Of a stretch of 29,734 bases of DNA, positions 3,930 to 27,947 are shown in pieces (the stretch's first letter is position 1; each line of letters begins with the position of its first letter). The DNA is from an uncultured virus (IMG/VR IMGVR_UViG_3300049259_000045) (Duplodnaviria; Heunggongvirae; Uroviricota; Caudoviricetes). The position numbers were made by a program, and so were the translations under genes. Below the pieces are notes generated by a model. That model did no database searches and had not been told where the DNA came from. It saw only the letters and a list, made by a program, of their open reading frames with translations. The stretch lies in the IMG/VR virus record IMGVR_UViG_3300049259_000045. The stretch is one strand, 5' to 3'.

Positions 3930-4379
3930 TCACCAATCGGTGCTGGACTCGCGATCTTGGACCGCTTTGTTTGCTTCCTCGTCGGATCGACGTGCGGCAG
4001 CCGTCAGCTCGTCTGACGCGGTCTTGGGGGACTTGGCCTGACCTAGGTCGTCCAGTCCGGCCGCTACCTTCCGGGCGATCTCGCGATCTATCCCATTATA
4101 CACTGTGACCGCCCAGCCGAGATCTGCAGCGTGATGAGAGGCGGTGGCCACAATCTCCGTGTCGGACAGCTGAGGGTCATGGAACGATCTGGTTACGATG
4201 TCCTCATTGACGCCAGCCTCGATCAAGAACGACTTGAGTTTGGCGTCATGTCCGGGAGCGTAAATCCCGAACGTCGCCGATGTACACCCGGTGGTTTTGC
4301 CGGACTGAGTCCGAAACATACTGCACTGACAGGGTCGAAGTTCCTTCGCCAACCTTCTCAGCTCCTCGGGCCTGTTCAT
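3930..4379 (-). CDS. PGHDAKLK-family putative Zn-binding protein, copy 1
   Basis: PCQC...TGC...YAPGHDAKLKSFLI. Confidence 0.85.
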   Translation of the reverse strand: MNRPEELRRLAKELRPCQCSMFRTQSGKTTGCTSATFGIYAPGHDAKLKSFLIEAGVNEDIVTRSFHDPQLSDTEIVATASHHAADLGWAVTVYNGIDREIARKVAAGLDDLGQAKSPKTASDELTAAARRSDEEANKAVQDRESSTDW

Positions 4380-5986: not shown

Positions 5987-6529
5987 TCACTGGGCGATGG
6001 CCGGAACTACCGCAATCGGCTTCATTCCGTTCGCTCCCTTGGCCGCCAGAGCCGCGCTGCTGTGCCAGGAACCGATGACCGTCAGACCATCGCTGAACGT
6101 GTAAACCGCCGCGTGGGTGTAGGTCTTGGTCTTGCTGGTACGAGTCTCCGTGATGTCCCCGTAAGTGGCCGAGAAGGTGGTTCCACGGCCCTTCTTGGGG
6201 GCGGGAACGGCCTCAGCGGCACCCTTGGCGGCCTCGGTCTGGCCAGCCGCCTTCCGGCCCTTCGCGATGCTCTCCAAGACCTTCGCGGCGAACCCAAACT
6301 CGGCGGCTGCCTTCTCGGCAGTGTACTCGCCCTTCTGACCGAACACCAACACCGGCTGACCCGCCACTCCTGCGCGGATCAGAAGACCCTTGAGCTTGGC
6401 GTCATGCCCGGGGGCGAACACGCGACCGGTGTCGGCCTCGCATCCGGTGTTCTCGCCGGTAACTGCGTTGGTAAACGTCTGGCACTGGCAAGGGTAGAGG
6501 TTGTCATTGAGGCTGTTGGACTTCGTCAT
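5987..6529 (-). CDS. PGHDAKLK-family protein, copy 2
   Basis: PCQC...TGC...FAPGHDAKLKGLLI; AGGGAG RBS. Confidence 0.9.
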   Translation of the reverse strand: MTKSNSLNDNLYPCQCQTFTNAVTGENTGCEADTGRVFAPGHDAKLKGLLIRAGVAGQPVLVFGQKGEYTAEKAAAEFGFAAKVLESIAKGRKAAGQTEAAKGAAEAVPAPKKGRGTTFSATYGDITETRTSKTKTYTHAAVYTFSDGLTVIGSWHSSAALAAKGANGMKPIAVVPAIAQ

Positions 6530-6650: not shown

Positions 6651-7211
6651 TCAGACCTGGCTGAACTTGGTGGTAGTCTGGCTGACGCCCTTCTTGTCCG
6701 TGTAGGTGAACTGCGGACCAACCGCCGGGCTGTCGGTCAGGGTGCCCGTGTAGGTCCAGCGTCCGACCTTCGCGGTCACGGTCGGCTTGGCCTCCGCCTT
6801 GGGCGCGTCCGCGTTCATCTTCGCGGCCTTGGCCTGACGCTTGGCAACGTCTGCGTCAACAACCTCATCGAAGGTCTTGGGGGTGGTCGCGGCCAGCTCG
6901 CGGGTCGCCTTGCGGTTGGCCTTCGCGACCTGCTTGGCCTTGCCGTTCTTGATACCCTCCATGACCTTCGAGTAGAAGCCGAACCGGCCGGAGACCTGGG
7001 CGGAAGTCAGCTCACCCGAGATTCCGTCGCTGATCATCTGGTCCTTGATGCCCGCGTTGATCAGAAGACCCTTGAGCTTGGCGTCGTGACCAGGCGCGAA
7101 CAGGCCCTTCGTGTTGGCGGTGCAACCCGTGTGCTCGCCGGTGCTGAGGTTGGTGAAGGCGGAGCAGATGCAGGGCTTGACGGCGGAAGCGGCTTTCGCG
7201 GTGTTCGACAT
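6651..7211 (-). CDS. PGHDAKLK-family protein, copy 3
   Basis: PCIC...TGC...FAPGHDAKLKGLLI; C-terminal AKVGRWTY...FTYTDKKG domain. Confidence 0.9.
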   Translation of the reverse strand: MSNTAKAASAVKPCICSAFTNLSTGEHTGCTANTKGLFAPGHDAKLKGLLINAGIKDQMISDGISGELTSAQVSGRFGFYSKVMEGIKNGKAKQVAKANRKATRELAATTPKTFDEVVDADVAKRQAKAAKMNADAPKAEAKPTVTAKVGRWTYTGTLTDSPAVGPQFTYTDKKGVSQTTTKFSQV

Positions 7212-7352: not shown

Positions 7353-7886
7353 TCAGACCAACTTGAACTTGCGGACCGTCTGGACCCGCCCCTTCTTGTC
7401 CGTGAACGTGAACTCGCCGTTGTCCACGGTGCCCTCGTACGTCCACCGACCGATCTTGGCCTTGACGACCTCGGGGACCTCGACCGGAGCGGGCTCCTGG
7501 TCGGCGGTCACGATGCCCGCGTCCTCGGCCAGCTTGCGCTCGGCGGTCTTGCCCTTCGCGGCCTTCTTCTCCGCCTTGGCCTGCGCCTTCTCGATTCCGC
7601 GCCGGATGCCCTCGGTGACCAGGTGGCCGAAACCGAACTGGTAGGCGACGGATTCCGGGCTGACCAGCTCGCCGGACGCCAGCCGCACCAGGTCACCGGC
7701 GATTCCGCGCCGGATCAGCTCGCCCTTGAGCTTGGCGTCGTGGCCGGGGGCGAACGTCCGCTTCGTGCCCATCCGGCACTGGGGCGCCTTCTCGTCGTCG
7801 CCGAAGTTCACGAAGGTGAAGTTGTTGCAGGCGCAGAGGGTGACACCGGACTCGGTACCAACGGTGTTCGCGGTGAGGTTCGTCAT
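7353..7886 (-). CDS. PGHDAKLK-family protein, copy 4
   Basis: LCAC...QC...FAPGHDAKLKGELI; C-terminal AKIGRWTY...FTFTDKKG domain shared with copy 3. Confidence 0.9.
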   Translation of the reverse strand: MTNLTANTVGTESGVTLCACNNFTFVNFGDDEKAPQCRMGTKRTFAPGHDAKLKGELIRRGIAGDLVRLASGELVSPESVAYQFGFGHLVTEGIRRGIEKAQAKAEKKAAKGKTAERKLAEDAGIVTADQEPAPVEVPEVVKAKIGRWTYEGTVDNGEFTFTDKKGRVQTVRKFKLV

Positions 7887-8527: not shown

Positions 8528-8679
8528 TGGCCGGGATGCTGGCCGATAGCCGCGACTACCCGGGATTCGACCAGGAGTGGGCTAACGGCAACGCGATCCG
8601 CCGGATGATCCGGCGCAAGGTGAAGCGTCAAGAAGCCAACGCAGTCCGACGCGCGATCAACGAGGAGCGTTCACAGTGA
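8527..8679 (+). CDS. Small basic protein (50 aa, MAGMLADSRDY...)
   Basis: TGATG coupling upstream, GTGA overlap downstream. Confidence 0.65.
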   Translation: MAGMLADSRDYPGFDQEWANGNAIRRMIRRKVKRQEANAVRRAINEERSQ

Positions 8680-9074
8680 ATGTCGTCTGGATTTTGGAAC
8701 AGATGAACGTGGTAGGAACTGACGACTACATGCGCATCGGAGTCTACGCGGAGCCGCATGACGTCCTGGACGATCTGGCGTTGATCGACCTGGCCCGGGA
8801 CTGGGCCACGCGGGGAGACCTGCGGGTAGGGGTAGACGAAGACCAGTACCTGATGTGGTTGGAGAAGGGATCCGACCGCGTTCAGCTCACCCCCGAACGC
8901 CTCGGCCCGAACACCCCGGAACATGAGATGGTGCTCACCGATCACCACCTTCGTGAACTCCGGCGGACGATGGCGGACCTGATGCACTCGATCAGCACCT
9001 CACCCGGAACCAACGCCCACGCGCCTCTCGGCGGATCGTGGCAGTTCGTACCGGACCCCATGACCGAGTTCTGA
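8676..9074 (+). CDS. Hypothetical protein
   Basis: GAGGAG RBS, followed by hairpin. Confidence 0.75.
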   Translation: MNVVWILEQMNVVGTDDYMRIGVYAEPHDVLDDLALIDLARDWATRGDLRVGVDEDQYLMWLEKGSDRVQLTPERLGPNTPEHEMVLTDHHLRELRRTMADLMHSISTSPGTNAHAPLGGSWQFVPDPMTEF

Positions 9075-9087
9075 CGGCAGACAGCGA

Positions 9088-9122
9088 GCGACCCCCGACC
9101 AGATGTACCGGTCGGGGGTCGC
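9088..9122. terminator. Bidirectional hairpin between convergent genes
   Basis: GCGACCCCCGACC-N9-GGTCGGGGGTCGC. Confidence 0.75.
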
Positions 9123-9134
9123 GGCTTGTCCGGC

Positions 9135-9935
9135 TTACGCCGCGTGTCGTTCAGCTCGGTGGCGTAGATCCCTGTCAGGCCAGCGGGCACGCAGGTAAGC
9201 ACCCCAGTCCGCACGTTCAGCGGAGGTCAGCTGAACCTCTCCGCACATGTCGTGCACCGCGCGAATGTTGTCGATCATCTGCGTGTGACTGACCGGCCTG
9301 GGGAACGGCAGGATGAAGTTCTCTCCAGACGGAGCGGGACAGGCTCGGTACCTTCCTTCAAAAACGTTGACGTTCCAGCGATCCATCCTGGCTCGGATGT
9401 CCAGATCGTGCAGTTGGGCGGGCAGCCATACCCGCGCCGACGCTGGCTTATGAAAGTGCTCGTCCCCCGTGCTGACACCGGCGGTGTTGTCCTCGAACGG
9501 GTGAGGCCACCCCATTTGTTTGATGACCTGGAGGGACCAGACGCGAGTCTCACGCTCGCCAGGTGTGAAGTCCCGCAGAAGACCTATCTCGGGAATTACG
9601 TCATTGCCCCCGATGTATCGCCCGATCCTGGGGATGTCTACGTGTCGATGTACCCCGGGCACGGTTCCCGCAGGGATGATTAGCTGACCCCACGTTGTGG
9701 CCAGATCATCGAGCAGATACCTGGAGTACCCGATATACCAGTCCGGCTTGACAGCCCAGTGCCCGATTTCGTGCAGGGAGTGCCACCAAGTCCCGTAGGA
9801 TCGGTTGCGTTCGGCCGGAAACGGTATATCGATGTACGCGCACAGTTCCAGCAGCTCGATATGACGCTCATCGAGCTGATGAGGTCCGTCAAACGCAGGA
9901 AACATGTGCATCAAGCTGAATGTCGGCAACGACAT
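9135..9935 (-). CDS. Putative zinc metalloprotease-like protein (HExxH)
   Basis: LHEIGHW motif plus downstream E (GERETRVW); 24 bp after traB stop. Confidence 0.6.
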   Translation of the reverse strand: MSLPTFSLMHMFPAFDGPHQLDERHIELLELCAYIDIPFPAERNRSYGTWWHSLHEIGHWAVKPDWYIGYSRYLLDDLATTWGQLIIPAGTVPGVHRHVDIPRIGRYIGGNDVIPEIGLLRDFTPGERETRVWSLQVIKQMGWPHPFEDNTAGVSTGDEHFHKPASARVWLPAQLHDLDIRARMDRWNVNVFEGRYRACPAPSGENFILPFPRPVSHTQMIDNIRAVHDMCGEVQLTSAERADWGAYLRARWPDRDLRHRAERHAA

Positions 9936-9959
9936 GTTACTTCTGTTCCTCTTCCCTGT

Positions 9960-12092
9960 TTAGCCGCGACCCTTGGGCTTCGGCTTGATTGCGTAATGTC
10001 CAAACGAAGGCTGGTGGACCCGCTCGTCGGCTTGCAGCCAGCGGGTGATGGTCCGGATAACCGGAACATTCCGACCAGCGAACGACTTGGACAAGGCTCG
10101 GTGGATGTCGGCAGGTTTGATGCCGTCTTCCCCCGAAGCTTTGACGACTCCGAAGACAATGGTCTTGAAGTCGAGACCTCCCTCTTCGGAGTCGTCTTCG
10201 TCGTCAGTCGGCGGAGTCGGCTCGGGCAGGGCAGCCGACCAGGTACCGGGGTCGTCCCAATCCGCCATCCCTTCCAATTTCATGATCCGCTCGAATTCGT
10301 CACGATAGTCAGGCACTTCGTCACCTCCTCCCGCGTTAGCCATGGCCTCCTGTACCTCTCGCTTGGCTGTTTCCGGGTCTCGGGGAGCGCCGTCGAACGC
10401 ATCGGAGATCGGATCCGGAGCAGGCTTCTCGATGGACACGGGCGGAGTTGACGCTCCACCAGAACCGACCGCTACCGGCGCCAGCTTCATGGCCTCAAGC
10501 CATTCAGCCCGCTGCCAGCGTCCCTCATACTGATCACCGGCTGCCTTGAGGGATTCCTCGTCCAACGCAGCTCGTAGATGAGCTGTTCCGACCGTGATGG
10601 CCCTCATGTGCTCCGGCAGGACGCGGTACCCCTTGAACGCCTTAACCACTCCGGTTTCTCCGTCAGCGTACACGCCGTAACCTCGGTCCGGCATGTCCTG
10701 CGGAGTTACCTTGGCCTCCCAGCCTACCAGGTACGCAATCTCGTCTTGATTCTCCATCATCAAGCCGATCTTGACCCGGGACTGGGACTTGACCATGGGG
10801 TCTCCGAACACGTCGGTAGTCGCCCGGAGACCGCAGGTCAGTTCGTTGACACCGACCGATCGAGCGATGCGCAGAACCTCCATGTAGTTGGCCGCAACCT
10901 TGCGCTTGGCCGCGTTATCCGATCCGGTCAGGGTCTGCTGCCCGAGGAATTCGGCGCCCTCGTCCGAGATGATCAAGATGCCCGGCAACTCGGGGGTCAT
11001 CGGCAGCAGGTCGGTGTTGGCCTCGTACATCAAGGTCTGGTACACGATCTTGCGGTGTTTGGCGATGGCTACCGCAGCAGCGGTCATGCACAGGGCCTCA
11101 GCATCGTCGGTAGCCACCCAGTCAACAGGGGGTCGACCGCCGGGTCGGCCTGCTTCGTCCCACGCCTTCATCCATGGAGTGGCCAGGCCACCGCCGTTGT
11201 AGTCGATGATCCAGACCAGCAGGTTAGGCATCCGGAGAAGCCGGGTCATGATGACCCGGAGTTGGTTGGTCTTACCGGCGCCCTTCTGTCCGACCAACAT
11301 CGCAGAGAATTCGCGCAAGTTGATAAGGGCCAGACTGCTGTCCCGCTCCTTACCGATGTCGAAGTGCTTCTCGAAGTCCAGCGGGGTCACATCGAGCGGA
11401 ACGGGGTGCTCTCCGTCCAGCGCGTTGATGAGCGACACCTTGATGACAGCCAGCCCTCGATTAACACCGGGGCCCACCTCCACGCCGCAGCCCTCGGGCA
11501 GCTTGGCGTCGGACGCCAGACCGTCGCTGAATGCTTTGATAGTGCGGTAGGTGTGTCCGCCGGACGGCAGTTCTACCTCTAGGCTGAACCCTGCATCCTT
11601 GGGCCAACCTTTGTCGTCCACCGCGATTACCTTGGTTCCGCGCAGGTTGCACACGCGGTCGATTCGGTCCGCCCACTCGTTGGCTGTCCCCACCTTAGCC
11701 AGGTAGTCAGCAACGGCCTGAGCCTTCTCGTCGCGCTTCCTCTTGCGGTTGGCCAAGTGAGCACCTACCACGCCCATGAAAGCTGCCGACCCGGCCAACA
11801 CGCCTACCGTGGTCGGGTTGATGGGATTGTTGTACGTCAAGGCGTAGCTCATCCACCCTCCGGCTCCGAGCCAGGACGCGACTCGGAACACCAGGGCTCC
11901 ACCGGTTAGCTTCTCCTCGTCCTCACGGGCGAGACCGCCGATGACTCCGCCGACCGACATCACTCCACCTGCCAGCAGCGGCCAGCCGGGGCCAACGTGC
12001 TCCAGTGACGCCAGTGAAGAAATAGCCATGAGTCCGGTAGCGGCGTTGAGTGTGCCGGATGCCGGTCCGTGTTTGGCTGACCAGTCTGCCAT
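9960..12092 (-). CDS. traB: TraB-type FtsK/SpoIIIE conjugative dsDNA translocase
   Basis: N-terminal TM helices, Walker A GQKGAGKT, Walker B ILIISDE, ARSVGV arginine-finger region, C-terminal winged-helix-like domain; architecture of Streptomyces plasmid/AICE TraB. Confidence 0.85.
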   Translation of the reverse strand: MADWSAKHGPASGTLNAATGLMAISSLASLEHVGPGWPLLAGGVMSVGGVIGGLAREDEEKLTGGALVFRVASWLGAGGWMSYALTYNNPINPTTVGVLAGSAAFMGVVGAHLANRKRKRDEKAQAVADYLAKVGTANEWADRIDRVCNLRGTKVIAVDDKGWPKDAGFSLEVELPSGGHTYRTIKAFSDGLASDAKLPEGCGVEVGPGVNRGLAVIKVSLINALDGEHPVPLDVTPLDFEKHFDIGKERDSSLALINLREFSAMLVGQKGAGKTNQLRVIMTRLLRMPNLLVWIIDYNGGGLATPWMKAWDEAGRPGGRPPVDWVATDDAEALCMTAAAVAIAKHRKIVYQTLMYEANTDLLPMTPELPGILIISDEGAEFLGQQTLTGSDNAAKRKVAANYMEVLRIARSVGVNELTCGLRATTDVFGDPMVKSQSRVKIGLMMENQDEIAYLVGWEAKVTPQDMPDRGYGVYADGETGVVKAFKGYRVLPEHMRAITVGTAHLRAALDEESLKAAGDQYEGRWQRAEWLEAMKLAPVAVGSGGASTPPVSIEKPAPDPISDAFDGAPRDPETAKREVQEAMANAGGGDEVPDYRDEFERIMKLEGMADWDDPGTWSAALPEPTPPTDDEDDSEEGGLDFKTIVFGVVKASGEDGIKPADIHRALSKSFAGRNVPVIRTITRWLQADERVHQPSFGHYAIKPKPKGRG

Positions 12093-12162
12093 TTTACCTT
12101 ACCTCCAATTCAAGGCTGAGCCGGGAGCCTCACGACTGAGGCTCCCGGCAGTGGAAGGGCTG

Positions 12163-13641
12163 TCACCGGTTGGCGGTGACGTCCCACTTCTGCTCACCGC
12201 GTCGCGGCGATTCGATCCGAGCAATGTCCACCTGGTGCAGGTTGCGGAACATCGGACCGAGGTCTTCGGCGGACGTGGCTGCTGCGAGCAGCGTCTTGTA
12301 GATGTCGCCCATCGTGTTGATGATGGCCGGGTTGATCGGGTCGTTGTCGTTGGATCGCTGGGTCATCACCCGCAGAGTCTCCGCGACGTTGCGAAGAGCC
12401 AACGGGAGCTGGCTGAGGTCGTTACCGACCTGCATCATGCCCTGGGGGTCGTAAACCGCTGCTGCGCCCATCATCTCGGCGGTAGCGGTCACGAATGCGG
12501 CTGCGGTCATGCTCGGGGTTCCTCCTGTTGTTGTGACCCGACCAAGGCCACCGCCGGTCGAGCCTCCATTCTTTGGGGTTCGTACTGTTGTTCCTACCGT
12601 GCCGGGGGCTGTGGGACTGGTCCCAGTAGCCGGAATTACCGGGGTGGTACCGCCGGGGGCAGCGGTAGACCGTCGATTTTTCCATACCTGCAGTGCTTTC
12701 TTCCACGACCGGCCTCGAATTCCAGCCAGTCCGGCAAAGATGGCAGGCCACAACACTCGCTTGCCCATCTTTGCCAAATTCCGTGCTGCGAACTGCCTCG
12801 GCTTGGCGGTTGCCTTCCAGCCCTTGCGCGCTGTTCCGCCAGCCTTGACAGCAGTACGGCCAACCGCGCGACCTCCGCTCATTGCCGAATTGACGCCGCG
12901 CTTGAGACCGCTGGTCCGGCTCGACGCGTGCCGACCTCCGCCGGACCGACCCTTTGACACACCCAACAGGTCGCCCAAGGTCCGCCCGTTTGAGCTACGC
13001 GGACCACTGGTCCGAGAGCCTGGTCCGGCCGGTCCGCTGGTCCGGCTGCCCGGACCACCAGCCTTAGCGCCTGGTCCGGGCGTGGTCCGGCCGGTCCGCT
13101 GGTCCGGTCCGCTGCTGGTCCGTGGTCCAGAGCCCCCGGATTGTGGTCCGCTGGTCCGTCCTCCTGGTCCGGATCCCAACAGGCCACTGGTCCGGCTGCC
13201 CGAGCCTGGTCCGCTGGTCCGCGATCCTCCACCCGGACCACCCGAGTTGGTCCGTCCGCTGGCGCCTGGTCCGGACCGGACCGGACTGGCTGCCCGGAAT
13301 GCAGCGCCCAGACCGGACCCTGGTCCTCGACGGTACCGGGCGTTGGTCCGGAGCGCGTACACCCCGGCAGCCAGGGCAGCCACCCCAACCACCAGTCCGG
13401 TTTCTGCGCCGCCGATGATCATCGCCGACTCAGCTCCGGCGACAGTGGCCACGTTCACCGCGCCCACCGCCAACGGGACGCCAGGGAGCCCCTTGTTTTT
13501 CTGGGCGCGGGAGCGCTTCGGAGCGGGCTTGGGTGCCGTAGTACCGGCCAGGGGCTGCGGAGCCGCCGGAGGGGCCACCGGAGCCGCCGATGAGGGCGTT
13601 CCGGGGATCTGGATGCTCGGGGTAGGGGCCTGATTGCTCAC
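12163..13641 (-). CDS. TraA-like plasmid transfer accessory protein with Gly/Pro/Ser/Arg low-complexity region
   Basis: Directly upstream of traB; C-terminal FRNLHQVDIARIESPRRGEQKWDV resembles Streptomyces plasmid TraA-type proteins (recognised from memory); AAGGAGG RBS. Confidence 0.65.
   Translation of the reverse strand: MSNQAPTPSIQIPGTPSSAAPVAPPAAPQPLAGTTAPKPAPKRSRAQKNKGLPGVPLAVGAVNVATVAGAESAMIIGGAETGLVVGVAALAAGVYALRTNARYRRGPGSGLGAAFRAASPVRSGPGASGRTNSGGPGGGSRTSGPGSGSRTSGLLGSGPGGRTSGPQSGGSGPRTSSGPDQRTGRTTPGPGAKAGGPGSRTSGPAGPGSRTSGPRSSNGRTLGDLLGVSKGRSGGGRHASSRTSGLKRGVNSAMSGGRAVGRTAVKAGGTARKGWKATAKPRQFAARNLAKMGKRVLWPAIFAGLAGIRGRSWKKALQVWKNRRSTAAPGGTTPVIPATGTSPTAPGTVGTTVRTPKNGGSTGGGLGRVTTTGGTPSMTAAAFVTATAEMMGAAAVYDPQGMMQVGNDLSQLPLALRNVAETLRVMTQRSNDNDPINPAIINTMGDIYKTLLAAATSAEDLGPMFRNLHQVDIARIESPRRGEQKWDVTANR
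12911..13350. repeat. GGWCC repeat cluster 1 (candidate clt/TraB recognition array)
   Basis: 30 GGWCC counted by eye (23 GGTCC, 7 GGACC), including 13 exact CTGGTCCG direct repeats. Confidence 0.8.
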
Positions 13642-13657
13642 GGGTTCACCTCCTTAC

Positions 13658-13672
13658 GTTACTCTGTGTTAG
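13658..13672. promoter_or_regulatory. BldD-box consensus match
   Basis: GTTACTCTGTGTTAG matches NTNACNC(A/T)GNGTNAN; abuts the traA-like RBS. Confidence 0.55.
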
Positions 13673-13675
13673 TGC

Positions 13676-13790
13676 GACAAATCGGACTCGGACAAGTGGG
13701 ACACGGGGGGTGTGTGGGGTCTGTATACCCCACGACCGGCCCGAGGAGGGGTGTCCTACCCCTGTCCGATCTGTCCGAGTCCCACCTGTC
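13676..13790. repeat. Nested inverted repeats in the spdB-traA intergenic region
   Basis: GGACTCGGACA 13684-13694 / TGTCCGAGTCC 13772-13782; inner hairpins 13714-13733 and 13747-13763. Confidence 0.65.
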
Positions 13791-13807
13791 ATACTAACCA
13801 CGGGTGA

Positions 13808-14995
13808 TCACACCGCCTTAAGGTGATCGCCGTAACCGGGCTGAGAACGTCCCCAAGCGGCTACCCTGCCCGCTCGGGTGGTGTTGATGGCCTCTTTGAA
13901 CCCGTCATGGGTTCGGATGACCTCACCGACGTTCCGGCGGTTGATCGTGATGCCGCTCTCAATCATGTACTGGATCGCGCGACGCTCTGTTTCGGTGGCC
14001 TCGAACTCTTCCGGCTGAGCCACCTCGCTCTCAACCGCAGTCGGTTCGGCTTGGACCTGGTCCGCCGGTACAGGCGGAAGTTCGGGGGTGGTCCGGACCT
14101 GGTCCAACATCGGCGCGGTCCGGGCAGGCTGGACCAAGTGGTCCGGCAGCGGGGGGAGCTGGTCTGCGGTCCGGTCCGTGCTGATGTGGCCCCCGACCTC
14201 GTGGACCTGGTCCGCCCGGACCAGCGGACCAGCCTGGTCCAAGGGTGTGGTCCGGCGGGTGAACCAGTTGGTCCGGGCGGACCGCTTGTTGGTCCGGATG
14301 ACCTCGGCAACGGACCACGCTTGGTCCAGGTCTCGCGTACCGGTCCGGACCATCTCGGACCACGCGGTCCACGCGGTCCGGGGGAAGCGGACCCAGCGGA
14401 CCAGACCCATCTTGGGCATCGGCTTGGTCCGCATGTTGGCCTGACGGAGCTTCCGGCGGTGGATCAGTCGAGCGTACAGCTCCCACACCATCAGACCGAT
14501 CATGGTCATTGACGCGAAGGTGACTGACCTCGGGGTCGCCGACCAGTGGTCCGAGTAGTGCCACCACTGCTGCGTAGCCGACCCGGTAGCGAAAGCCCAG
14601 GTCGCCAGCCGGAACTCGATTCCGCTGTCGCCGTCCTTGCGAGCCTCGTGGTACATCCACCCGCAGAACGCGGTGGTGAGTTCGTACGCTGCGGCGTAGA
14701 CGATCGCGGCCGGAAACGTCCAGCCGATGACCTTCATCGCGAATCCGGCCTGACCGGTCCACGCAACGGCCATGGGCGCCAAGATCGGACCGGAAATCAT
14801 CACGGTCCGAGTGGCCAAAGCTACCTTGCTCAGCCGCTGGCGAGTGAGCGCGTCGCGCTCCGCACGGCGGTCGATCTTGTTACGAAGTTCTTCCCGCTCA
14901 TCCAGCCGCTCAAGCTGACGCTTCCGGATCTTGCGATCGACCCGGCGGTCAAGCCAGCCGGAGCGAGGTGTTACCGGGGTGTTTTCCTCGGACAT
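13808..14995 (-). CDS. DUF2637/SpdB-like membrane spread protein
   Basis: N-terminal coiled coil, four TM helices, PKMGLVRWVRFPRTAWTAW motif, Pro-rich linker, C-terminal helical domain. Confidence 0.75.
   Translation of the reverse strand: MSEENTPVTPRSGWLDRRVDRKIRKRQLERLDEREELRNKIDRRAERDALTRQRLSKVALATRTVMISGPILAPMAVAWTGQAGFAMKVIGWTFPAAIVYAAAYELTTAFCGWMYHEARKDGDSGIEFRLATWAFATGSATQQWWHYSDHWSATPRSVTFASMTMIGLMVWELYARLIHRRKLRQANMRTKPMPKMGLVRWVRFPRTAWTAWSEMVRTGTRDLDQAWSVAEVIRTNKRSARTNWFTRRTTPLDQAGPLVRADQVHEVGGHISTDRTADQLPPLPDHLVQPARTAPMLDQVRTTPELPPVPADQVQAEPTAVESEVAQPEEFEATETERRAIQYMIESGITINRRNVGEVIRTHDGFKEAINTTRAGRVAAWGRSQPGYGDHLKAV
14053..14430. repeat. GGWCC repeat cluster 2
   Basis: 29 GGWCC counted by eye (17 GGTCC, 12 GGACC), many as inverted pairs such as GGACCTGGTCC. 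Confidence 0.8.
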
Positions 14996-15040
14996 TGCCT
15001 ACTCCTTAGGCGGATTGTATTAGGGAGAGTGTAGGTTTCC

Positions 15041-15111
15041 ATTCTATCATATCGGTTGCGCATGCAGCAACCCCCCAACCCGGCTTTGACGCTCCGGGCG
15101 GGGGGTTGCTG
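15041..15111 (-). promoter_or_regulatory. Promoter of the spdB-traA-traB operon overlapping an upstream hairpin
   Basis: TTGCTG(15070-15065)-N18-TAGAAT(15046-15041); stem CAGCAACCCCC/GGGGGTTGCTG 15065-15111. Confidence 0.75.
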
Positions 15112-15312: not shown

Positions 15313-15335
15313 TTTGTCTCCCTCGTTGTTCCGGC

Positions 15336-15393
15336 TTGTAGAACAATTTTAACATGACTCGACCCCCTGACGCAAGTCCACGTCAGGGGGTCG
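15336..15393 (-). promoter_or_regulatory. Class B promoter fused with hairpin
   Basis: TTGCGT-N18-TAAAAT then TGTTCTACAA; 13-bp stem 15360-15372/15381-15393. Confidence 0.85.
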
Positions 15394-15413
15394 TTGATGA
15401 AGGTCCGAATCCG

Positions 15414-15599
15414 TCACCCCTCGGGGGTTTCTGCGTTCTTCTCCGCCAACCGAGCCGCCATCCGCTCAGCGCGCTGGGTGCGAACGTCCTCCTCGCGCTG
15501 GCGGACCTCCGCCAGCTCCTCGTCCGTCATCGTCAGAGACTTGCCGATCTGGGAACGTCGGATGATCTGCACTGTCTGGGAAGTGACCTTGCGACGCAT
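15414..15599 (-). CDS. Small helical hypothetical protein (61 aa, MRRKVTSQ...)
   Basis: AAGGAG RBS, own class B promoter. Confidence 0.8.
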   Translation of the reverse strand: MRRKVTSQTVQIIRRSQIGKSLTMTDEELAEVRQREEDVRTQRAERMAARLAEKNAETPEG

Positions 15600-15633
15600 T
15601 GTGTGCTCCTTCGCTGTGGCCGGTCGTCCCGGC

Positions 15634-15699
15634 TTGTAGAACAATTTTAACACACTGCGCGACCCCCGCACAAGTCCTGATGTGCGGGGGTCGCGCAGT
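15634..15699 (-). promoter_or_regulatory. Class B promoter fused with hairpin
   Basis: TTGTGC-N18-TAAAAT then TGTTCTACAA; 19-bp stem 15654-15672/15681-15699. Confidence 0.85.
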
Positions 15700-15702
15700 C
15701 GG

Positions 15703-15864
15703 TCAGCGAAGGGGGGTGACCTCGTCGGAGGAGTGGGTGCCGAGGTAGCCGCCGTGCTCGTTGGCGTCCCAGTTGACTTCGACGCCCTCGCTGTCCTGCT
15801 TGACCACGGTGCCCTCGGCACCGGTCTGGACGTGCTCCACGCGGTCATTCTTGTTGTACGCCAT
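15703..15864 (-). CDS. Small SH3/KOW-like beta-barrel protein (53 aa)
   Basis: DRVEH..TGAEGTVV...VEVNWD pattern; GGGGAG RBS. Confidence 0.75.
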   Translation of the reverse strand: MAYNKNDRVEHVQTGAEGTVVKQDSEGVEVNWDANEHGGYLGTHSSDEVTPLR

Positions 15865-15886
15865 CAGATCTCCCCAATAGTTCCGA

Positions 15887-15941
15887 TTGTAGAACAATTT
15901 TAACACGCCTCCGCCCCCGGTGTCAAGATCACCGGGGGCGG
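15887..15941 (-). promoter_or_regulatory. Class B promoter fused with hairpin
   Basis: TTGACA-N18-TAAAAT then TGTTCTACAA; 12-bp stem 15911-15922/15930-15941. Confidence 0.85.
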
Positions 15942-15954
15942 GGTGGGCGGTCGA

Positions 15955-16146
15955 TCAGACGGCGGGGGTGACCAGCTCCTGGCCCTTGTAGTTGACGATC
16001 GACTGGAAGAGGGTGCCCTTGGCGTCCTCCATCGTCGCGACCTGCAGGCCACCTCGCGTCTTGAGGTTGGTGACGGTCAGCGCGCCAGTGACCTTGTTCT
16101 CTTCGGCGCGGGTCCAGTTGACCTGAGTTCCGACGGTGACCTTCAT
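15955..16146 (-). CDS. Small hypothetical protein (63 aa, MKVTVGTQ...)
   Basis: AAGGAGCACAAAATG start context. Confidence 0.8.
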   Translation of the reverse strand: MKVTVGTQVNWTRAEENKVTGALTVTNLKTRGGLQVATMEDAKGTLFQSIVNYKGQELVTPAV

Positions 16147-16174
16147 TTTGTGCTCCTTATTTTGTCCCGCGTCC

Positions 16175-16253
16175 TTGTAAAACAATTATAACATATTACT
16201 AACATTGAGCACAAGTCCGCCCGGCCACCCAACTCAGGGTGGCCGGGCGGACT
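16175..16253 (-). promoter_or_regulatory. Class B promoter abutting hairpin
   Basis: TTGTGC-N18-TATAAT then TGTTTTACAA; 17-bp stem 16214-16230/16237-16253. Confidence 0.85.
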
Positions 16254-18098: not shown

Positions 18099-18815
18099 TT
18101 ACTTGTAGGACGGGAACTGCCTATCCACCTGCTTGGCCAGCCTGCGCGCACGACGCGCATCTGACGTCCCCTGAATCGACCGGAGCGTATCGACCAAGCC
18201 GCCCTGCTCCACCACGTAGAATGTGGAGTCGATTTCTATCCAGCCCCCGGGATGCGAACCCCGGTCGATACGAGCGCCGTCGAGCACTAATATCGAAATT
18301 ACGTGAACCCCGAGAGCGTCCCGAACTCGCGAGGTTTCCCACCTGATCGTGTTGACGTTGTCGGTTTTGCACCACGGACCGTAGTACAGATCGTTGCCGC
18401 GCATGCGTACCGGCGCCTTGTTGGCGTGCCAAGCCTTAGTGTCCCCCACTATGACAGCCTGGCCGGACGGGTGAACCCACACATGATCAAGGTTAGCTTT
18501 GGATCGCGGGATGGACCTATCGTCAAACAGGTACCAGCCGTCCCGCCCCAGCCGCCGGACGATCTTCCCTGTACGGGCCTCACCGGCTGCCCCCTGGCGC
18601 CAGCGCTGCCCTACCTCCCGCACGCCACGGAGACCTACCGTGGCCCCTCCGGCGACGCCGAGAACGGCCCCTGCTGCTCCAGCCCCCGGATTGTACGAGA
18701 GGCCCAGAAGACCCCCTCCGACGGCTCCAGCTATCACCCATCCTTTCGCGCTCTTGACTTTGTCGGTTGTCAGTTGCCTGGCCCTGGCCCTGGCAGAAGA
18801 ACCGGCCTTACCCAC
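18099..18815 (-). CDS. NERD (nuclease-related domain) membrane protein
   Basis: Two TM helices then GAAGEART...DDRSIPRSKANLDHVWV...DTKAW PD-(D/E)xK-type motif. Confidence 0.85.
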   Translation of the reverse strand: MGKAGSSARARARQLTTDKVKSAKGWVIAGAVGGGLLGLSYNPGAGAAGAVLGVAGGATVGLRGVREVGQRWRQGAAGEARTGKIVRRLGRDGWYLFDDRSIPRSKANLDHVWVHPSGQAVIVGDTKAWHANKAPVRMRGNDLYYGPWCKTDNVNTIRWETSRVRDALGVHVISILVLDGARIDRGSHPGGWIEIDSTFYVVEQGGLVDTLRSIQGTSDARRARRLAKQVDRQFPSYK

Positions 18816-18896: not shown

Positions 18897-19577
18897 TTAG
18901 AAAAGCGACTCGTCGTCGGACCCGTTGGCGTCCGCGTTGGTCTCGGCCGAAGTGGCGCCCTTCGCGTCGGCGGTGGCCTGAGCCGCCGCAGCCGCGTCCT
19001 TGGCCTTCTGTTCGGCCGCAACCTTCTTCGCGGCCTCCTTCTCGGCCTTGGCCTTCTCGGCAGCCGCCTTCTTCTCGGCCTTGACCGCGTCGGCCTTGGC
19101 CTTCTTGTCGGCCTTCTCCTTCTCGCGCTCCGCCTTGGCCGCGTCGCGGGTGGCCGCACCGGCAGCCTTGGCGTCGGCCTCGGCCACCGCGCGAGCGATG
19201 CCGTCCCGGACCTTGGGGCCGAAACCGTACTCGTTGGCCGCGTCCTGCGCGCCCATCTCGATGTCCTCGTCGCCGACCCGCTTGTAGACGGACTCGCCGA
19301 CCGCGCCGAGCTTGATCAGGTGGCTCTTGAGCTTGGCATCGTGGCCCGGAGCGAAGTTGCCGCCGGTCGTCTGGGTGCAGGGGATCAGCTCCTCCAGCAC
19401 CGCCTCGCCGTCGACGTCCACGACCTTGCTGTACAGGCTGCACTTGCAGCGGCTCGGAACCTTGGGCTCCTTGGCCGGGGTCGCGGGGGTGACGGCCTCG
19501 GTCGCTTCGGGGGAAGTGCTCTCGGTCGCGTCCGACTCGGCCTGCTCGACCTCGGGCGCCTCGACTTCGGTGCTCAT
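18897..19577 (-). CDS. PGHDAKLK-family protein, copy 5, with Ala/Lys/Glu-rich tail
   Basis: RCKC...PC...FAPGHDAKLKSHLI; KAKADAVKAEKKAAAEKAKAEKEAAKK tail. Confidence 0.9.
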   Translation of the reverse strand: MSTEVEAPEVEQAESDATESTSPEATEAVTPATPAKEPKVPSRCKCSLYSKVVDVDGEAVLEELIPCTQTTGGNFAPGHDAKLKSHLIKLGAVGESVYKRVGDEDIEMGAQDAANEYGFGPKVRDGIARAVAEADAKAAGAATRDAAKAEREKEKADKKAKADAVKAEKKAAAEKAKAEKEAAKKVAAEQKAKDAAAAAQATADAKGATSAETNADANGSDDESLF

Positions 19578-20093: not shown

Positions 20094-20558
20094 TTACGCG
20101 GCCAGCGCCATCGGGCGGCTGGCCCATTCCAGGTCAAAAGCCGACTCCCACAGGAGGTCGGCGAGGGGAGCGTTTCCGTGCGAGTCTGCGCGGTCGGCTT
20201 GATCCATCAGCTTGCCGGTGATCAGGTCCATCACGTCCATCGGGCCGAGGTCGTCGGACAACTCCATCGGGGTGGTCTGCTCTTCGTGGCCGATGACCTC
20301 GAACTTAGCCGACCGAGAGTGGATGACGTAGCCGCTCAGTCGGTCCAACCGGAACGACTTCTCGATGTTGTCTTCATCCAGGTCCCGACCCACGATCGAG
20401 ATGTTGCCGTCCTGGCTGACCTTGGCGTCGGTCGGCTCGATGTGCCGGGTGCGGGTCTCCTCACCCGGCTTGGTGTACAGGAACGTGATCCGGTGGCCGC
20501 GCTCGGACGCACGCAGGAAGTGGACCAACGTCCAGTACTCGCTGCGGATCTTGCGCAT
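20094..20558 (-). CDS. Stand-alone WYL-domain protein
   Basis: ITFLYTK...RTRHIEP...IVGRD...KSFRLDRL; ATG 20558 with GGGAGG RBS. Confidence 0.85.
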   Translation of the reverse strand: MRKIRSEYWTLVHFLRASERGHRITFLYTKPGEETRTRHIEPTDAKVSQDGNISIVGRDLDEDNIEKSFRLDRLSGYVIHSRSAKFEVIGHEEQTTPMELSDDLGPMDVMDLITGKLMDQADRADSHGNAPLADLLWESAFDLEWASRPMALAA

Positions 20559-20595
20559 TCGGTGCCTCCCGGATCGTCCTCGTTCTTGTAGTACC

Positions 20596-20668
20596 ATTCT
20601 ACCATGGCAGTAGGAGCCCCCACAAGTTGCCGCCCCTGACCGGATCAGCTGGTCAGGGGCGGCAACTT
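20596..20668 (-). promoter_or_regulatory. Class C promoter overlapping hairpin base
   Basis: TTGTGG-N18-TAGAAT; 18-bp stem 20624-20641/20651-20668. Confidence 0.8.
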
Positions 20669-22993: not shown

Positions 22994-23659
22994 TCAGAAC
23001 CCGGCCACCTCGCGGAAGTAGTGGTAGGCCACGTTGTAATCGGCGTTGTCGATGGTGGTCGTCCGCAGCTCGGTCTTGTCGCGGAGCCACGCTTTGGCGG
23101 CTGTGGTGAACTCCTCCAACGCGGCGGCTTCGCCGACGAAGCTTGCACCGATCGGCTCTTGGCTGTTGCGCTGACCATCCGCGCGCTGCAGGTTCCGCAT
23201 CACGGCCTTGGTGGCGGAACCCTCGCCGCGAGCCTTCTTCTCCGCGCGGTCGATCCCCTTCGCTACCTGGATCGAGAACCCGAAGTCGCGGGCAGCCGCG
23301 ATGCTGTGCTCATAACCACCGAACATCGGGTAACCCCAAGCCTTGATCAGGATCGACTTGGCCTTGGCGTCGTGCCCGGGAAGGAACTTCCGGCCGTTGC
23401 CGGGGGTCCGGGTGGTGTCGCAACCGGTGTGCACAACCTCGCCATCCTTCCGAAACCCGAGACTGGCGCACGCGCACAGGTTGTGCGGGGTAAGGTCGCG
23501 GACCGGCACGTCCACCCAACCGGTCGGGGTGTCGTGCGAGAACGAGGGCAGGAGTTCCAGGCTGACGACCTGATTGCCGGACGGCATGTCCACCGGCTCA
23601 GTGCGAACCCATCCGATGGTGCCGTACACGGTCTTGACCACGGTCCCGATTTCGAGCAT
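22994..23659 (-). CDS. PGHDAK-family protein, copy 6, with extra N-terminal SH3-like domain
   Basis: LCAC...TGC...FLPGHDAKAKSILI; N-terminal EIGTVVKT..GTIGWV. Confidence 0.85.
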   Translation of the reverse strand: MLEIGTVVKTVYGTIGWVRTEPVDMPSGNQVVSLELLPSFSHDTPTGWVDVPVRDLTPHNLCACASLGFRKDGEVVHTGCDTTRTPGNGRKFLPGHDAKAKSILIKAWGYPMFGGYEHSIAAARDFGFSIQVAKGIDRAEKKARGEGSATKAVMRNLQRADGQRNSQEPIGASFVGEAAALEEFTTAAKAWLRDKTELRTTTIDNADYNVAYHYFREVAGF

Positions 23660-24486: not shown

Positions 24487-24516
24487 ATTCTACCACGTCA
24501 ATTCAGTCCCGCACAA
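24487..24516 (-). promoter_or_regulatory. Class C promoter, -35 inside the upstream gene's 3' end
   Basis: TTGTGC-N18-TAGAAT with extended TG. Confidence 0.7.
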
Positions 24517-25133
24517 GCATCGTCCCCGGTTCCGTTAGAGGAACTGGGGACGGCGTAAGCGGCCTTGTCCTCGTCGGTGTGCTGGTCAGCCCAGACCAGG
24601 CTCATGTCCGCACCGCATTCCGGGCACTCCAGGTCATCCGGCCTGGCGGTGTCGTGCTCGCACTCCGGCTCGTCCGGAATGGTCACGGAGGGGGTGATCG
24701 TGGCCTTGATCTTGCCGGACTCCAACGCCTTCTTCTCCTTGGCCGCGTCACGCTCGGCTTTCTTGGCGGCCTTGACCGCTGCCCGCTCCTGCGCCCGGAC
24801 GATGCCCGCAACCACCATGTGCCCGAATCCGTAGCGCTTGGCGTGGCCGACCGCGTCATCGCTGACGGCCACGCCGCCCTCGTGCCGACGGATCTCGTGG
24901 CCAAGCAGTTCGTGCTTGATCAGGAACGACTTGAGCTTGGCGTCGTGGCCAGGCGCGAAAGTGTTGCGGGTGTCCTGGGTGCAGTACGTCTCCCAGGAGT
25001 CGTAGTCACCGTTGGCCAGGCTCTCCTCGGTGAGCTGGGCGCTGTCTAGGGCGTCGAACTTCTGGCACTCGCACGGCAGGGGTTCGTTCTTGTCCGCGTC
25101 AGTCGCCACGGTCACTGCGGTGTTCTCGGTCAT
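24498..25133 (-). CDS. PGHDAKLK-family protein, copy 7, with C-terminal Zn-ribbon
   Basis: PCEC...YC...FAPGHDAKLKSFLI; tail CEH...CPECG. Confidence 0.9.
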   Translation of the reverse strand: MTENTAVTVATDADKNEPLPCECQKFDALDSAQLTEESLANGDYDSWETYCTQDTRNTFAPGHDAKLKSFLIKHELLGHEIRRHEGGVAVSDDAVGHAKRYGFGHMVVAGIVRAQERAAVKAAKKAERDAAKEKKALESGKIKATITPSVTIPDEPECEHDTARPDDLECPECGADMSLVWADQHTDEDKAAYAVPSSSNGTGDDACAGLN

Positions 25134-26561: not shown

Positions 26562-27947
26562 TCAGTTCTCGGGAAGGTCCCGACCGATCATCCGAGCCAG
26601 GTAGTCGAACACGTGCCGGGTGCCGGAGATTTGCGCGTTGAAGTCGCACGCCTCCTGCAAGTCGACCCAGTTCGGATTGAACTCCGGGAAGTTCTCATCG
26701 GTGATTTTGCCGGTCCTGATCCACATCCGAGCGGTCGAGGTTACGTCTCGATGGAACTTGATGCCGAGACCTCGATTGTAGTTGTCGAACGCCTCCTTGA
26801 CCAGGCTCCAAGCGGTGTCGGGGTCGAGGCCCTGCCGGACCAGCCAAGTCCGCGCGGTGGCGCTGTTGATCTCGGACTCGAACCGATAGACGTTGTCGAG
26901 CATCTTGTCTGTGTTGACCTGCAGGTTGGCGATGAGGTCAGTTGCCTTAACCACCATGTGGTCCAGCACGATGAGGGCGGTCGGCAGGGCCACACGCTCG
27001 ACACTACTGTGGCTGATATCGCGCTCGTGGTAGAGGGCAACATCCTCCAGCATCGGACCGACCTGCGCCCGGACCAACCTGGCCAGGCCGGTCAGGTTCT
27101 CGCTGGTGATCGGATTGCGCTTGTGCGGCATCGCCGACGAGCCCACTCGGTTGGCAGCGTCCCCTTCGGCCAGCTCGCCCACCTCGGATTGCATCGACAA
27201 GCGGACCTCCAAGGCCAGCGTCTCGATGACGGAAGCGGCCTGAGCGCACGCAAACACCAGGTCGGCGAGGCTGTCCCTGGCCACCACCTGGGTTGCTGTC
27301 ATCGGAGGTCGTCCCTCCGGACCGATCAAGAGTTGAGCAAACGCCAACTCCTGCTCTCGGGTAACGTGCTTGTAGTCGCCGACCGGACCAGACATCTTCG
27401 GCCGTCCGGCAGCCCTGGCTGCCGACCTGAGGTGACTGTGCGCCCGAACCGCCATGTGCGTGATGTCGGCAACTCGATAGCCCCAGGTGCTGACCTCAGC
27501 AATCTGGCCATGCGTTCGGGCCACCCGCAACGTTTTGCGATGCTGCAGGGAATGCTCCACCATCGTCCGGATGAATCGATCCATGTGCCGGTGGATGATC
27601 ATCTCGGAATTGATCACGGTCAGGGCCAGAGCCGAGTCTACCAGGTCAGAGCTGGTCATTCCTCGGTGCACCCAACCGTGAGCCGCCGGGTCCATCCCGT
27701 TCTTCCAGGCTGCCAGGAAAGCCACCACGTCGTGACCGCTCCTGGCCTCTTCTGCGGCCACCTGATCGGGGGTGGGCACCGCAGCCGCCGTCATGGCCGT
27801 GATGACCTCCGAGGGGGCGCCCTGGGCCTTCGCGGCGGTGAACTCCACAGCGGCCCAGTTCCGGTATCGGGTCTCCTCGGACCAGATTCCGGCCATCTCC
27901 GGCCCGATGTACCGCTTGGGTACCGGGATTTGATCGAGACTGTTCAC
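26562..27947 (-). CDS. purB: Adenylosuccinate lyase
   Basis: Fumarase/ASL signature GSSAMPHKRNP, plus HDVVAF, VHRGMTSSD, ARTHGQ, HERDISHSSVER motifs. Confidence 0.92.
   Translation of the reverse strand: MNSLDQIPVPKRYIGPEMAGIWSEETRYRNWAAVEFTAAKAQGAPSEVITAMTAAAVPTPDQVAAEEARSGHDVVAFLAAWKNGMDPAAHGWVHRGMTSSDLVDSALALTVINSEMIIHRHMDRFIRTMVEHSLQHRKTLRVARTHGQIAEVSTWGYRVADITHMAVRAHSHLRSAARAAGRPKMSGPVGDYKHVTREQELAFAQLLIGPEGRPPMTATQVVARDSLADLVFACAQAASVIETLALEVRLSMQSEVGELAEGDAANRVGSSAMPHKRNPITSENLTGLARLVRAQVGPMLEDVALYHERDISHSSVERVALPTALIVLDHMVVKATDLIANLQVNTDKMLDNVYRFESEINSATARTWLVRQGLDPDTAWSLVKEAFDNYNRGLGIKFHRDVTSTARMWIRTGKITDENFPEFNPNWVDLQEACDFNAQISGTRHVFDYLARMIGRDLPEN

Follow-up and report, generated by a model that had tools for sequence, protein, structure and literature searches.

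For the conjugative plasmids of Streptomyces, PMC4447253 states that the translocase TraB together with the cis-acting site clt suffices for the transfer of double-stranded DNA (dsDNA), and that TraB in concert with SpdB3, Spd79 and SpdB2 directs spreading across septa. The clt sites described in PMC3583192 are composed of 7-9-bp repeats that are bound by Tra/TraB, and an overlap with the tra coding sequence is possible. Functions of this kind have also been connected to phages: the plasmid-phage pZL12 is reported, in the citations of PMC3583192 and PMC4487206, to require tra and two genes beside it for its transfer, and for the SpdB2 homologues on the actinophages phiC31 and VWB the idea was put forward that they help the phage DNA to spread (Thoma et al. 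2015, PMC4447253). In the accessible text of phage papers FtsK-like genes receive passing mention only, and in the full-text literature, which covers few subscription journals, we found no description of a full TraB-Spd module in a non-temperate phage. Here we describe a module of this type, from an apparently non-temperate phage, in a stretch of 29,734 nucleotides (hereafter the window) from an uncultured tailed virus (IMG/VR IMGVR_UViG_3300049259_000045), in which the genes for a DUF2637-family (SpdB-like) membrane protein, a membrane partner and a TraB-like translocase lie within what is apparently one transcription unit, from promoter through end hairpin (15111 to 9088, minus strand).

We give a probability of about one half to the reading that this operon, derived from the actinomycete machinery for dsDNA conjugation and spread, pumps phage DNA into neighbouring compartments or hyphae. 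One strong host-type promoter would transcribe the DUF2637 (SpdB-like) protein, the TraB-linked membrane partner and the TraB translocase, the last of which would unite an FtsK-type hexameric-motor fold with a membrane anchor and, at its C-terminus, a winged-helix-like DNA reader. These three proteins would assemble at hyphal cross-walls or contacts in the course of infection, a DNA-binding tail of one module protein would dock on an array of the word CGGACCA, and the motor would pump replicating phage DNA to adjacent compartments or hyphae, a single adsorption event then infecting many compartments. We infer assembly, docking, transfer and benefit, the transfer part and any bypass of receptors from plasmid biology (PMC4447253), and regard virion-independent spread of the phage DNA as plausible.

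The TraB module and its promoter

The open reading frame (ORF) of 710 amino acids (aa) at 9960-12092 (minus strand) encodes the TraB-like dsDNA translocase, which matches phrog_31069, 'FtsK/SpoIIIE-like protein', of PHROGs with E=2.8e-92. Its Walker A (G268...K274 T275 N276) and Walker B (D377 E378) residues are invariant across 25 aligned homologues. The AlphaFold model (mean predicted local distance difference test, pLDDT, 81; predicted template modelling score, pTM, 0.57) is ordered into four N-terminal helices (predicted at 10-30, 36-54, 64-84 and 93-147), a beta domain, the ATPase (motor) domain, a disordered linker and a C-terminal domain, and the predicted hydrophobic segments at 14-33, 35-56, 62-82 and 90-115 point to an N-terminal membrane anchor. 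The C-terminal helix-helix-helix-strand-strand block at 642-702 is modelled with a pLDDT of 88-93 and looks like a winged-helix-like putative DNA reader. After a Foldseek search with the model, the best matches were TcpA of pCW3 (3.3e-17) and the FtsK motor (9.3e-16). The original prediction of a co-oriented DUF2637/SpdB-like and TraB gene unit among phage genes, with intact Walker A/B motifs and a transmembrane anchor in TraB, is borne out by the minus-strand ORFs, the family matches and the fold, by the invariant residues and by the four predicted helices.

Full-length TraB homologues were detected by tblastn in the Streptomyces phages Keanu, Galactica, Spocter and Hiyaa, all of Hiyaavirus (41-43% identity over 99% of the length), and partial ones in Thermobifida phage P1312 (32%) and phage ZL12 (27%), giving 8 records altogether; 33 plasmid records also match the TraB-like protein. 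The closest relative of the window, an 89,118-bp IMG/VR contig with a completeness rating of 99% (L008/G001; hereafter the 89-kb relative), is syntenic with it over 18 kb and carries a TraB of 75% identity. The proteins of plasmids and of the integrating conjugative elements of actinomycetes (AICEs) are 24-38% identical.

As the motor fold matches FtsK equally well as it matches conjugation proteins, the translocase might instead serve segregation, that is, an FtsK/SpoIIIE-like pump might clear or move phage DNA across the closing septa of an infected hypha into new compartments or spores, in a carrier state or pseudolysogeny, rather than drive it into cells not yet infected. For related phages, 'DNA segregation' has been proposed in PMC4569894 and a connection with host development in PMC13587820, and with no recognisable integrase another route of persistence would be useful to the phage. 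We consider this unlikely, however, since the closest cellular relatives of the protein are AICE and plasmid Tra proteins, not chromosomal FtsK, and the module also includes an Spd-type membrane partner and a TraB-linked partner gene.

The first of these partners, the 395-aa product of the ORF at 13808-14995 (minus strand), matches phrog_10376 (E=8.5e-12), and its own score against Pfam DUF2637 (E=0.045, 14.1 bits) lies below the cut-off of 22.8. The DUF2637 assignment was reached through the family homologues, PF10935 being found in 18 of the 120 listed homologues and matching 7 of 27 aligned members at E<=0.001; we take DUF2637 to be the family of SpdB2. According to the family alignment, the protein is built of a basic N-terminus, a conserved hydrophobic membrane core, a linker variable in length and sequence, and a conserved C-terminus of about 60 residues. 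Its hydrophobic segments lie at 55-114 and 157-179, with three stretches at low threshold, SpdB2 having four helices, and the hydrophobic core also matches DUF2637-annotated genes of ~130-kb Streptomyces phages, and genes in 72 plasmid records. Identity is 42% to gp96 of Galactica and 63.5% to the protein of the 89-kb relative, and homologues are present in Keanu and Spocter as well. The family profile gave no meaningful match in PDB, its profile-profile comparison with the TraB family reached a probability of 4%, and by BLASTP the protein met the DUF2637 protein of the record NZ_CP108596.1 (see below) only at E=0.68.

The second partner, the 492-aa 'TraA-like' membrane protein (12163-13641, minus strand), consists of two hydrophobic helices (50-101), a low-complexity region rich in G/S/R/A/T/P (106-370) and a conserved C-terminal domain (~375-492), the alignment of which displays the motif FRxxHxxDIxRxExPR..E..W[DN]V. 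At 50 of the 53 actinomycete genome loci collected in the scan described below, the TraB homologue has this domain encoded directly upstream of it, and therefore the 492-aa protein appears to be a conserved partner of TraB. It is 37% identical to gp98 of Galactica and 54% to its counterpart in the 89-kb relative. Downstream of traB by 24 nt and still within the module unit lies a 266-aa ORF (9135-9935, minus strand), for which Pfam, PHROGs and NCBIfam all gave no match at E<=0.01. It lacks a counterpart in the 89-kb relative and in Galactica and thus is not conserved; in the protein Atlas all its matches stay below 0.9, none exceeding 0.85, and its model is poor. For all four module proteins, the Pfam and NCBIfam searches were without a match at E<=0.01.

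The membrane segments bear on another explanation, in which the translocase is a helper of replication, recombination or packaging that resolves or moves concatemers inside the cell, with the membrane partners being incidental. The location of the module in the non-structural arm, amid nucleotide-metabolism genes, would suit such a helper, but hydrophobic segments are present in both partners, as are four hydrophobic helices in the N-terminal part of TraB, and the phage lineage possesses a terminase of its own, which makes this role very improbable.

The window has a G+C content of ~62%, and almost every gene lies on the minus strand. At the head of the module, 46 nt upstream of the 395-aa ORF, stands the promoter TTGCTG-N18-TAGAAT with a TG-extended -10 (15041-15070, minus strand). 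The word TTG-N21-TAGAAT is present in 8 exact copies in the window, all on the minus strand, where 0.02 are expected and none of 100 shuffles reaches 8, and 9 of the 10 TAGAAT hexamers are on the minus strand. The aligned copies have in common TTGTG...TG-n-TAGAAT-n-G, a word that we presume to resemble the vegetative Streptomyces promoter consensus. After alignment of nine promoter regions, a G+C-rich hairpin (15068-15108, minus strand) was found to overlap the -35 of the module promoter; it is probably the terminator of the upstream unit, and similar inverted repeats lie 5' of several other copies of the promoter word. The module promoter is thus common to neighbouring phage genes, as had been proposed. 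The same word heads the module of the 89-kb relative (3655-3684 of L008, immediately 5' of the first module gene), and no exact copy was found in Galactica and Hiyaa.

Within the module, the consensus scan yielded no further sigma-70-like site except a weak match at 15014-15041 beside the promoter, and the terminator scan yielded no convincing minus-strand terminator inside the unit. The likely end of the unit is a stem-loop with 13 bp of G+C (9088-9122), read from the sequence between the convergent ORFs 9135-9935 (minus) and 8676-9074 (plus), which is missing from the list of the terminator scan because it is without a T run. The intergenic region of 166 nt between the two partner genes (13642-13807, minus strand) includes an extended inverted repeat, after which come AAGGAGG and the GTG with which the 492-aa gene starts. 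The predicted fold of this spacer has -80.6 kcal/mol (z=-5.1; none of 200 shuffles equally good), with CGGACA/TGTCCG words in the arms of the hairpin, and its counterpart in the 89-kb relative, 77% alike, is less structured (z=-2.5; 3 of 200 shuffles). The hairpin could be an RNA element or part of a cis site. The sequencing runs found for the module number four, all of DNA and from two studies, and identical module pieces are present on contigs from three soil runs; a 'skip' joint from 12559 to 14720 was considered unreliable because its depth is 2 and the shorter side measures just 21 letters.

Four copies of a repeat of ~55 nt, at intervals of 250-300 nt, lie immediately upstream of the module (15325-16218). 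Their minus-strand sequence looks like a second type of promoter, TTGCGT-N18-TAAAAT with a TG preceding the -10, and each is located 5' of an ORF of 62-76 aa; the repeat itself produces spurious 'LKLFYKP' ORF starts.

Phage ownership and origin of the module

The window is considered to be part of a ~92-kb soil tailed phage, a family-level relative of the Streptomyces Hiyaavirus phages; the contig on which its TraB is recorded measures 91,734 bp. Among these phages, the complete genome of the siphovirus Galactica carries the genes for terminase, portal, capsid, tail and endolysin and replication genes of its own, and an integrase is not annotated among its 116 features. The same module is found there as gp96-gp97-gp98-gp99, and the same three genes are arranged in the same order in Hiyaa and in the 89-kb relative. 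The window and Galactica have in common, in addition, the genes for dUTPase and PurB-like lyase, two further genes and a multi-copy paralogue family, the NERD gene also being among those shared. On the 89-kb relative, PHROGs profiles identified TerL, tape measure, tail fibre, endolysin, DNA polymerase and primase, although the TerL of Galactica found no match there. The expectation that the phage would carry virion genes therefore held for this relative, with TerL, tape measure and tail fibre, and only in part for the window, where a single gene for a collagen-like tail fibre was found (46-804; phrog_18350, 5e-32); the other window genes include those for dUTPase, PurB-like lyase, and NERD and WYL proteins.

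As to signs of a mobile element, Pfam and PHROGs scans of the 55 window ORFs gave no integrase, Rep or GntR, no direct repeat flanks the module on both sides and no att-like repeats were seen, just as the original prediction had stated. In the 89-kb relative there was no match to PF00589 or PF00239 (tyrosine and serine recombinase) and no ParA above the cut-off, only a sub-threshold CbiA match inside a RecA/Sak4-like ORF. Compared with this relative, the ratio of nonsynonymous to synonymous substitution (dN/dS) is 0.17 for TraB, 0.29 for the 395-aa gene and 0.34 for the 492-aa gene, values that are approximate because dS is near saturation.

In order to place the TraB protein, we scanned genomes, one per species, and obtained 53 loci, which were classed by markers from Pfam-scanned examples: within 10 kb, 6 have terminase, portal or ClpP, 29 have RepAM (DUF3631), Prim-Pol or integrase and are AICE-like, and 18 stayed unclassified. 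A quick maximum-likelihood tree of 63 rows was calculated under LG+G4, with support by the Shimodaira-Hasegawa-like approximate likelihood ratio test (SH-aLRT) only; L057 was omitted as truncated, and some ORFs over-extended at the N-terminus were trimmed through column filtering. The 15 Hiyaa-like rows form one clade (SH-aLRT 100), 5 of them being verified phages (window, 89-kb relative, Galactica, Hiyaa and Keanu) and the other 10 being labelled from similarity and contig size. The sister clade of 13 rows (support 100) is prophage-linked and includes, besides NZ_CP108596.1, a record deposited as a 'plasmid', all 6 terminase/portal-marked loci. Support for the node that unites both clades is 98, and all 26 Rep/Int-marked rows of the tree lie outside. 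The tree, which the original prediction had called for, separates the phage TraBs from the AICE copies and shows, at the level of sequence, a single origin within the phages.

NZ_CP108596.1 (L003, L062) is a circular record of 51.7 kb deposited as Streptomyces 'plasmid unnamed1'. Its gene content, with terminase, portal, capsid, tape measure, LysM protein and serine recombinase, identifies it as the whole genome of a temperate phage, and it carries DUF2637, partner and TraB genes. From this identity and from the tree it follows that at least two phage lineages would own this TraB type, and that the copies are not recent captures.

These results leave little room for a passenger cassette, a recently captured AICE or plasmid fragment of no benefit to the phage. 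Homologues are indeed common on AICEs and plasmids, and the downstream 266-aa ORF is variable; set against this are the single origin and deep divergence within phages (41-75% identity), the conserved gene order, the phage promoter, the dN/dS of 0.17-0.34 and the lack of Rep, integrase and att. We regard the passenger explanation as largely refuted and its probability as minimal. The opposite proposal, that the module is domesticated and a part of the phage rather than a passenger plasmid, is supported by the gene order in Galactica, Hiyaa and the 89-kb contig, by the promoter word in the latter and by the dN/dS values.

Several features of the genome arm around the module were noted in parallel. 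Seven ORFs (3930-4379, 5987-6529, 6651-7211, 7353-7886, 18897-19577, 22994-23659 and 24498-25133) have a common domain of ~90 residues and are related to gp87, 102, 104, 106 and 110 of Galactica, representing a multi-copy paralogue family scattered through the arm. The NERD-domain protein (18099-18815; kept in Galactica as gp90 and in the 89-kb relative) and the WYL-domain protein (20094-20597) are both headed by the module promoter type, and in a prophage-type locus (L012) a WYL gene follows directly after traB. The PurB-like lyase and the dUTPase of the window lie at 26562-27947 and 29227-29715; beside the same pair the 89-kb relative has an adenylosuccinate-synthetase-like gene (phrog_1211; L063:12050-13153), and Galactica carries 'PurA-like' and 'PurB-like' genes. 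This set of PurA/PurB-like and dUTPase genes resembles that of phages in which 2-aminoadenine takes the place of adenine; if this is such a phage, its DNA words would include modified bases. In Hiyaa (L002 7158-8969), the gene that separates gp99 from the translocase, gp100, has been assigned to the opposite strand, and the plus strand is open for a 604-aa frame where Galactica has gp98, which makes a strand misannotation probable.

The CGGACCA array as a candidate docking site

The 7-mer CGGACCA occurs 47 times in the window against 8.2 expected, and the 8-mer CGGACCAG 23 times against 2.4 expected. Of the 47 copies, 35 fall within 2.9 kb that begin with the 395-aa gene and extend up to where traB starts, and 12 lie in the other 26.8 kb. 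A dense polar array at 12912-13350 (minus strand), inside the 492-aa gene, has 17 coding-strand copies and 3 reverse copies, 13 of them as CGGACCAG. The copies are distributed over frames 0, 2 and 1 of this gene in numbers of 10, 6 and 1, coding for R-T, G-P and D-Q, respectively. In synonymous-codon shuffles the means were 1.6-2.95 and no more than 8 copies were reached in 500, and the maximum for any 7-mer in 300 shuffles was also 8. In the middle gene of the 89-kb relative the same word is found 19 times against a shuffle maximum of 10, though the proteins are 54-64% identical, and of the copies on the whole contig, 36 belong to the module and 24 to the remaining 86 kb. The array appears to be selected at the DNA level.

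A second cluster, of mixed orientation, lies in the 395-aa gene (14058-14553, minus strand; 9 coding-strand and 6 reverse copies), in frames 0 and 1 and coding for different peptides. Its excess is marginal: shuffles average 2.4-3.4 copies and reach at most 7-8, compared with the 9 observed, and for the 6 reverse copies they reach at most 5-6. In the temperate phage NZ_CP108596.1 the word is another one, CGGGGCG, in 17 copies over three frames against a maximum of 12, together with a complement-type word of it in the DUF2637 gene. The DNA-level excess and the likeness to the described clt sites led us to propose the array as a candidate clt, that is, a putative docking site of the translocase within the linker codons of two partner genes.

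The distribution of the word also bears on what DNA the module may act upon. It might be directed at other DNA or at competitors, by mobilising host or plasmid DNA, by excluding plasmids, AICEs or phages, or by perturbing septa or envelope for lysis; TraB of pSVH1 binds clt-like chromosomal sites as well, as described in PMC3218068, and PMC4447253 reports that SpdB2 makes pores and permeabilises membranes and that unregulated TraB is toxic. Most copies of the enriched word, in contrast, belong to the module of the phage itself (35 of 47 in the window, 36 of 60 in the 89-kb relative), a concentration that fits self-recognition, and we judge such other targets to be quite unlikely. The more specific form of transfer, in which an apparently non-temperate phage pushes replicating genomes through cross-walls or hyphal contacts with the pump docking on its own linker-codon array, is put forward more tentatively, and we hold it to be possible rather than probable.

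Several observations weigh against transfer of phage DNA as the function of the module. The array is clear only in the subclade of the window, no 7-mer exceeding the shuffles in Galactica and Hiyaa, where the commonest word at the module is the complement of CCGGACC; beyond this subclade an array was seen, with the other word, in one temperate relative. A crude comparison of the TraB C-terminal helix with the enriched word at 17 loci indicated no co-variation, the helix being nearly constant and the words different, and for this reason TraB may not be the reader of the array. Repeat-rich linker DNA can also arise from slippage. Pfam FtsK_SpoIIIE (PF01580) matches none of the 25 aligned members of the TraB family and the sequence profile of TraB matches PDB weakly (best E=0.013), so that membership in TraB is based on fold and context. 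The Kil-Kor partner (GntR-type TraR/KorA) is absent from the window ORFs, and hence the regulation differs from that of plasmids. Finally, the tail fibre is the one virion gene seen within the window, and absence of lysogeny genes was checked on the 89-kb relative and the Galactica annotation only.

In Galactica (L001 17716-18048) and Hiyaa (L002 19509-19859), clusters of GTTACCCC/GGGGTAAC with 4-5 copies each way were observed in a stretch of ~0.8 kb without annotated genes near the right genome end; these may be iterons or an origin.

Comparison with known transfer systems

For the spread of phages in a septated multicellular mycelium, a phage-owned TraB/Spd machine would be a concrete mechanism, and one accessible to genetics because the isolated relatives Hiyaa, Galactica, Keanu and Spocter grow on laboratory Streptomyces. 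If the proposed transfer is true, it would represent virion-independent cell-to-cell movement of a bacterial virus, comparable to the movement proteins of plant viruses, and a plaque would be partly a 'pock'. The boundary between phage infection and conjugation would be blurred, and host range and receptor resistance in actinomycetes would have to be rethought. The genes of this TraB clade are currently labelled 'hypothetical' or 'FtsK-like', surveys based on PF01580 would miss them because the clade escapes this profile, and in at least one case, NZ_CP108596.1, a complete phage with the module has been deposited as a 'plasmid'.

With the Tra/TraB-clt-Spd systems of pSVH1, pIJ101, pSN22 and pWTY27, the module has in common, as far as the model goes, a membrane-anchored FtsK-like translocase with a C-terminal winged-helix-like tail, and furthermore a putative Spd-type, probably polytopic membrane partner in the traB operon and short DNA repeats near or within the tra region. 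Unlike these plasmid systems, it stands in a tailed phage, without Rep, integrase or the GntR repressor TraR/KorA, under a promoter that is common to other genes of the window phage; pSQ10, by comparison, has a GntR near its Tra homologue. While the described clt sites comprise 4-9 repeats, the array in the window is far larger, its 35 copies extending over 1.6 kb within linker codons that belong to two genes. FtsK/SpoIIIE and TcpA of pCW3 agree with the window TraB in the motor fold (Foldseek 3e-17 to 9e-16, TM by target 0.58-0.73) and in the Walker A/B motifs, but the identity is 14-16%, the N-terminal membrane domain and the C-terminal reader differ, and Pfam FtsK_SpoIIIE and FtsK_gamma do not match.

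Among phages, ZL12 with its plasmid form pZL12 (Zhong et al. 2010, J Bacteriol, as cited in PMC3583192 and PMC4487206) is also a tailed Streptomyces phage with a Tra-type translocase, distant from the window TraB (26.7% identity over 54% of the length by tblastn). pZL12 is reported to persist as a plasmid with ParA/ParB, whereas the window has neither ParA/ParB nor a replicon or an integrase, and the 89-kb relative is without an integrase or a ParA above the cut-off. phiC31 and VWB carry, according to PMC4447253, an Spd homologue alone, in contrast to the window with TraB and partner as well. The Hiyaavirus phages Hiyaa, Galactica, Keanu and Spocter resemble the window in the module and in shared genes of the genome arm, though at 34-55% amino-acid identity and with no megablast nucleotide match of the module to phages; judged by sequence, the window phage is a relative outside this genus. 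Their module genes are annotated merely as 'membrane protein' and 'FtsK-like DNA translocase'. Already known are the transfer function of pZL12, the remark on phage SpdB2 homologues and the isolated Hiyaavirus phages with the module in GenBank, while new to print are the large phage lineage with the module and without recognisable lysogeny genes, and the word array, large and spread over several reading frames, which a close relative has kept.

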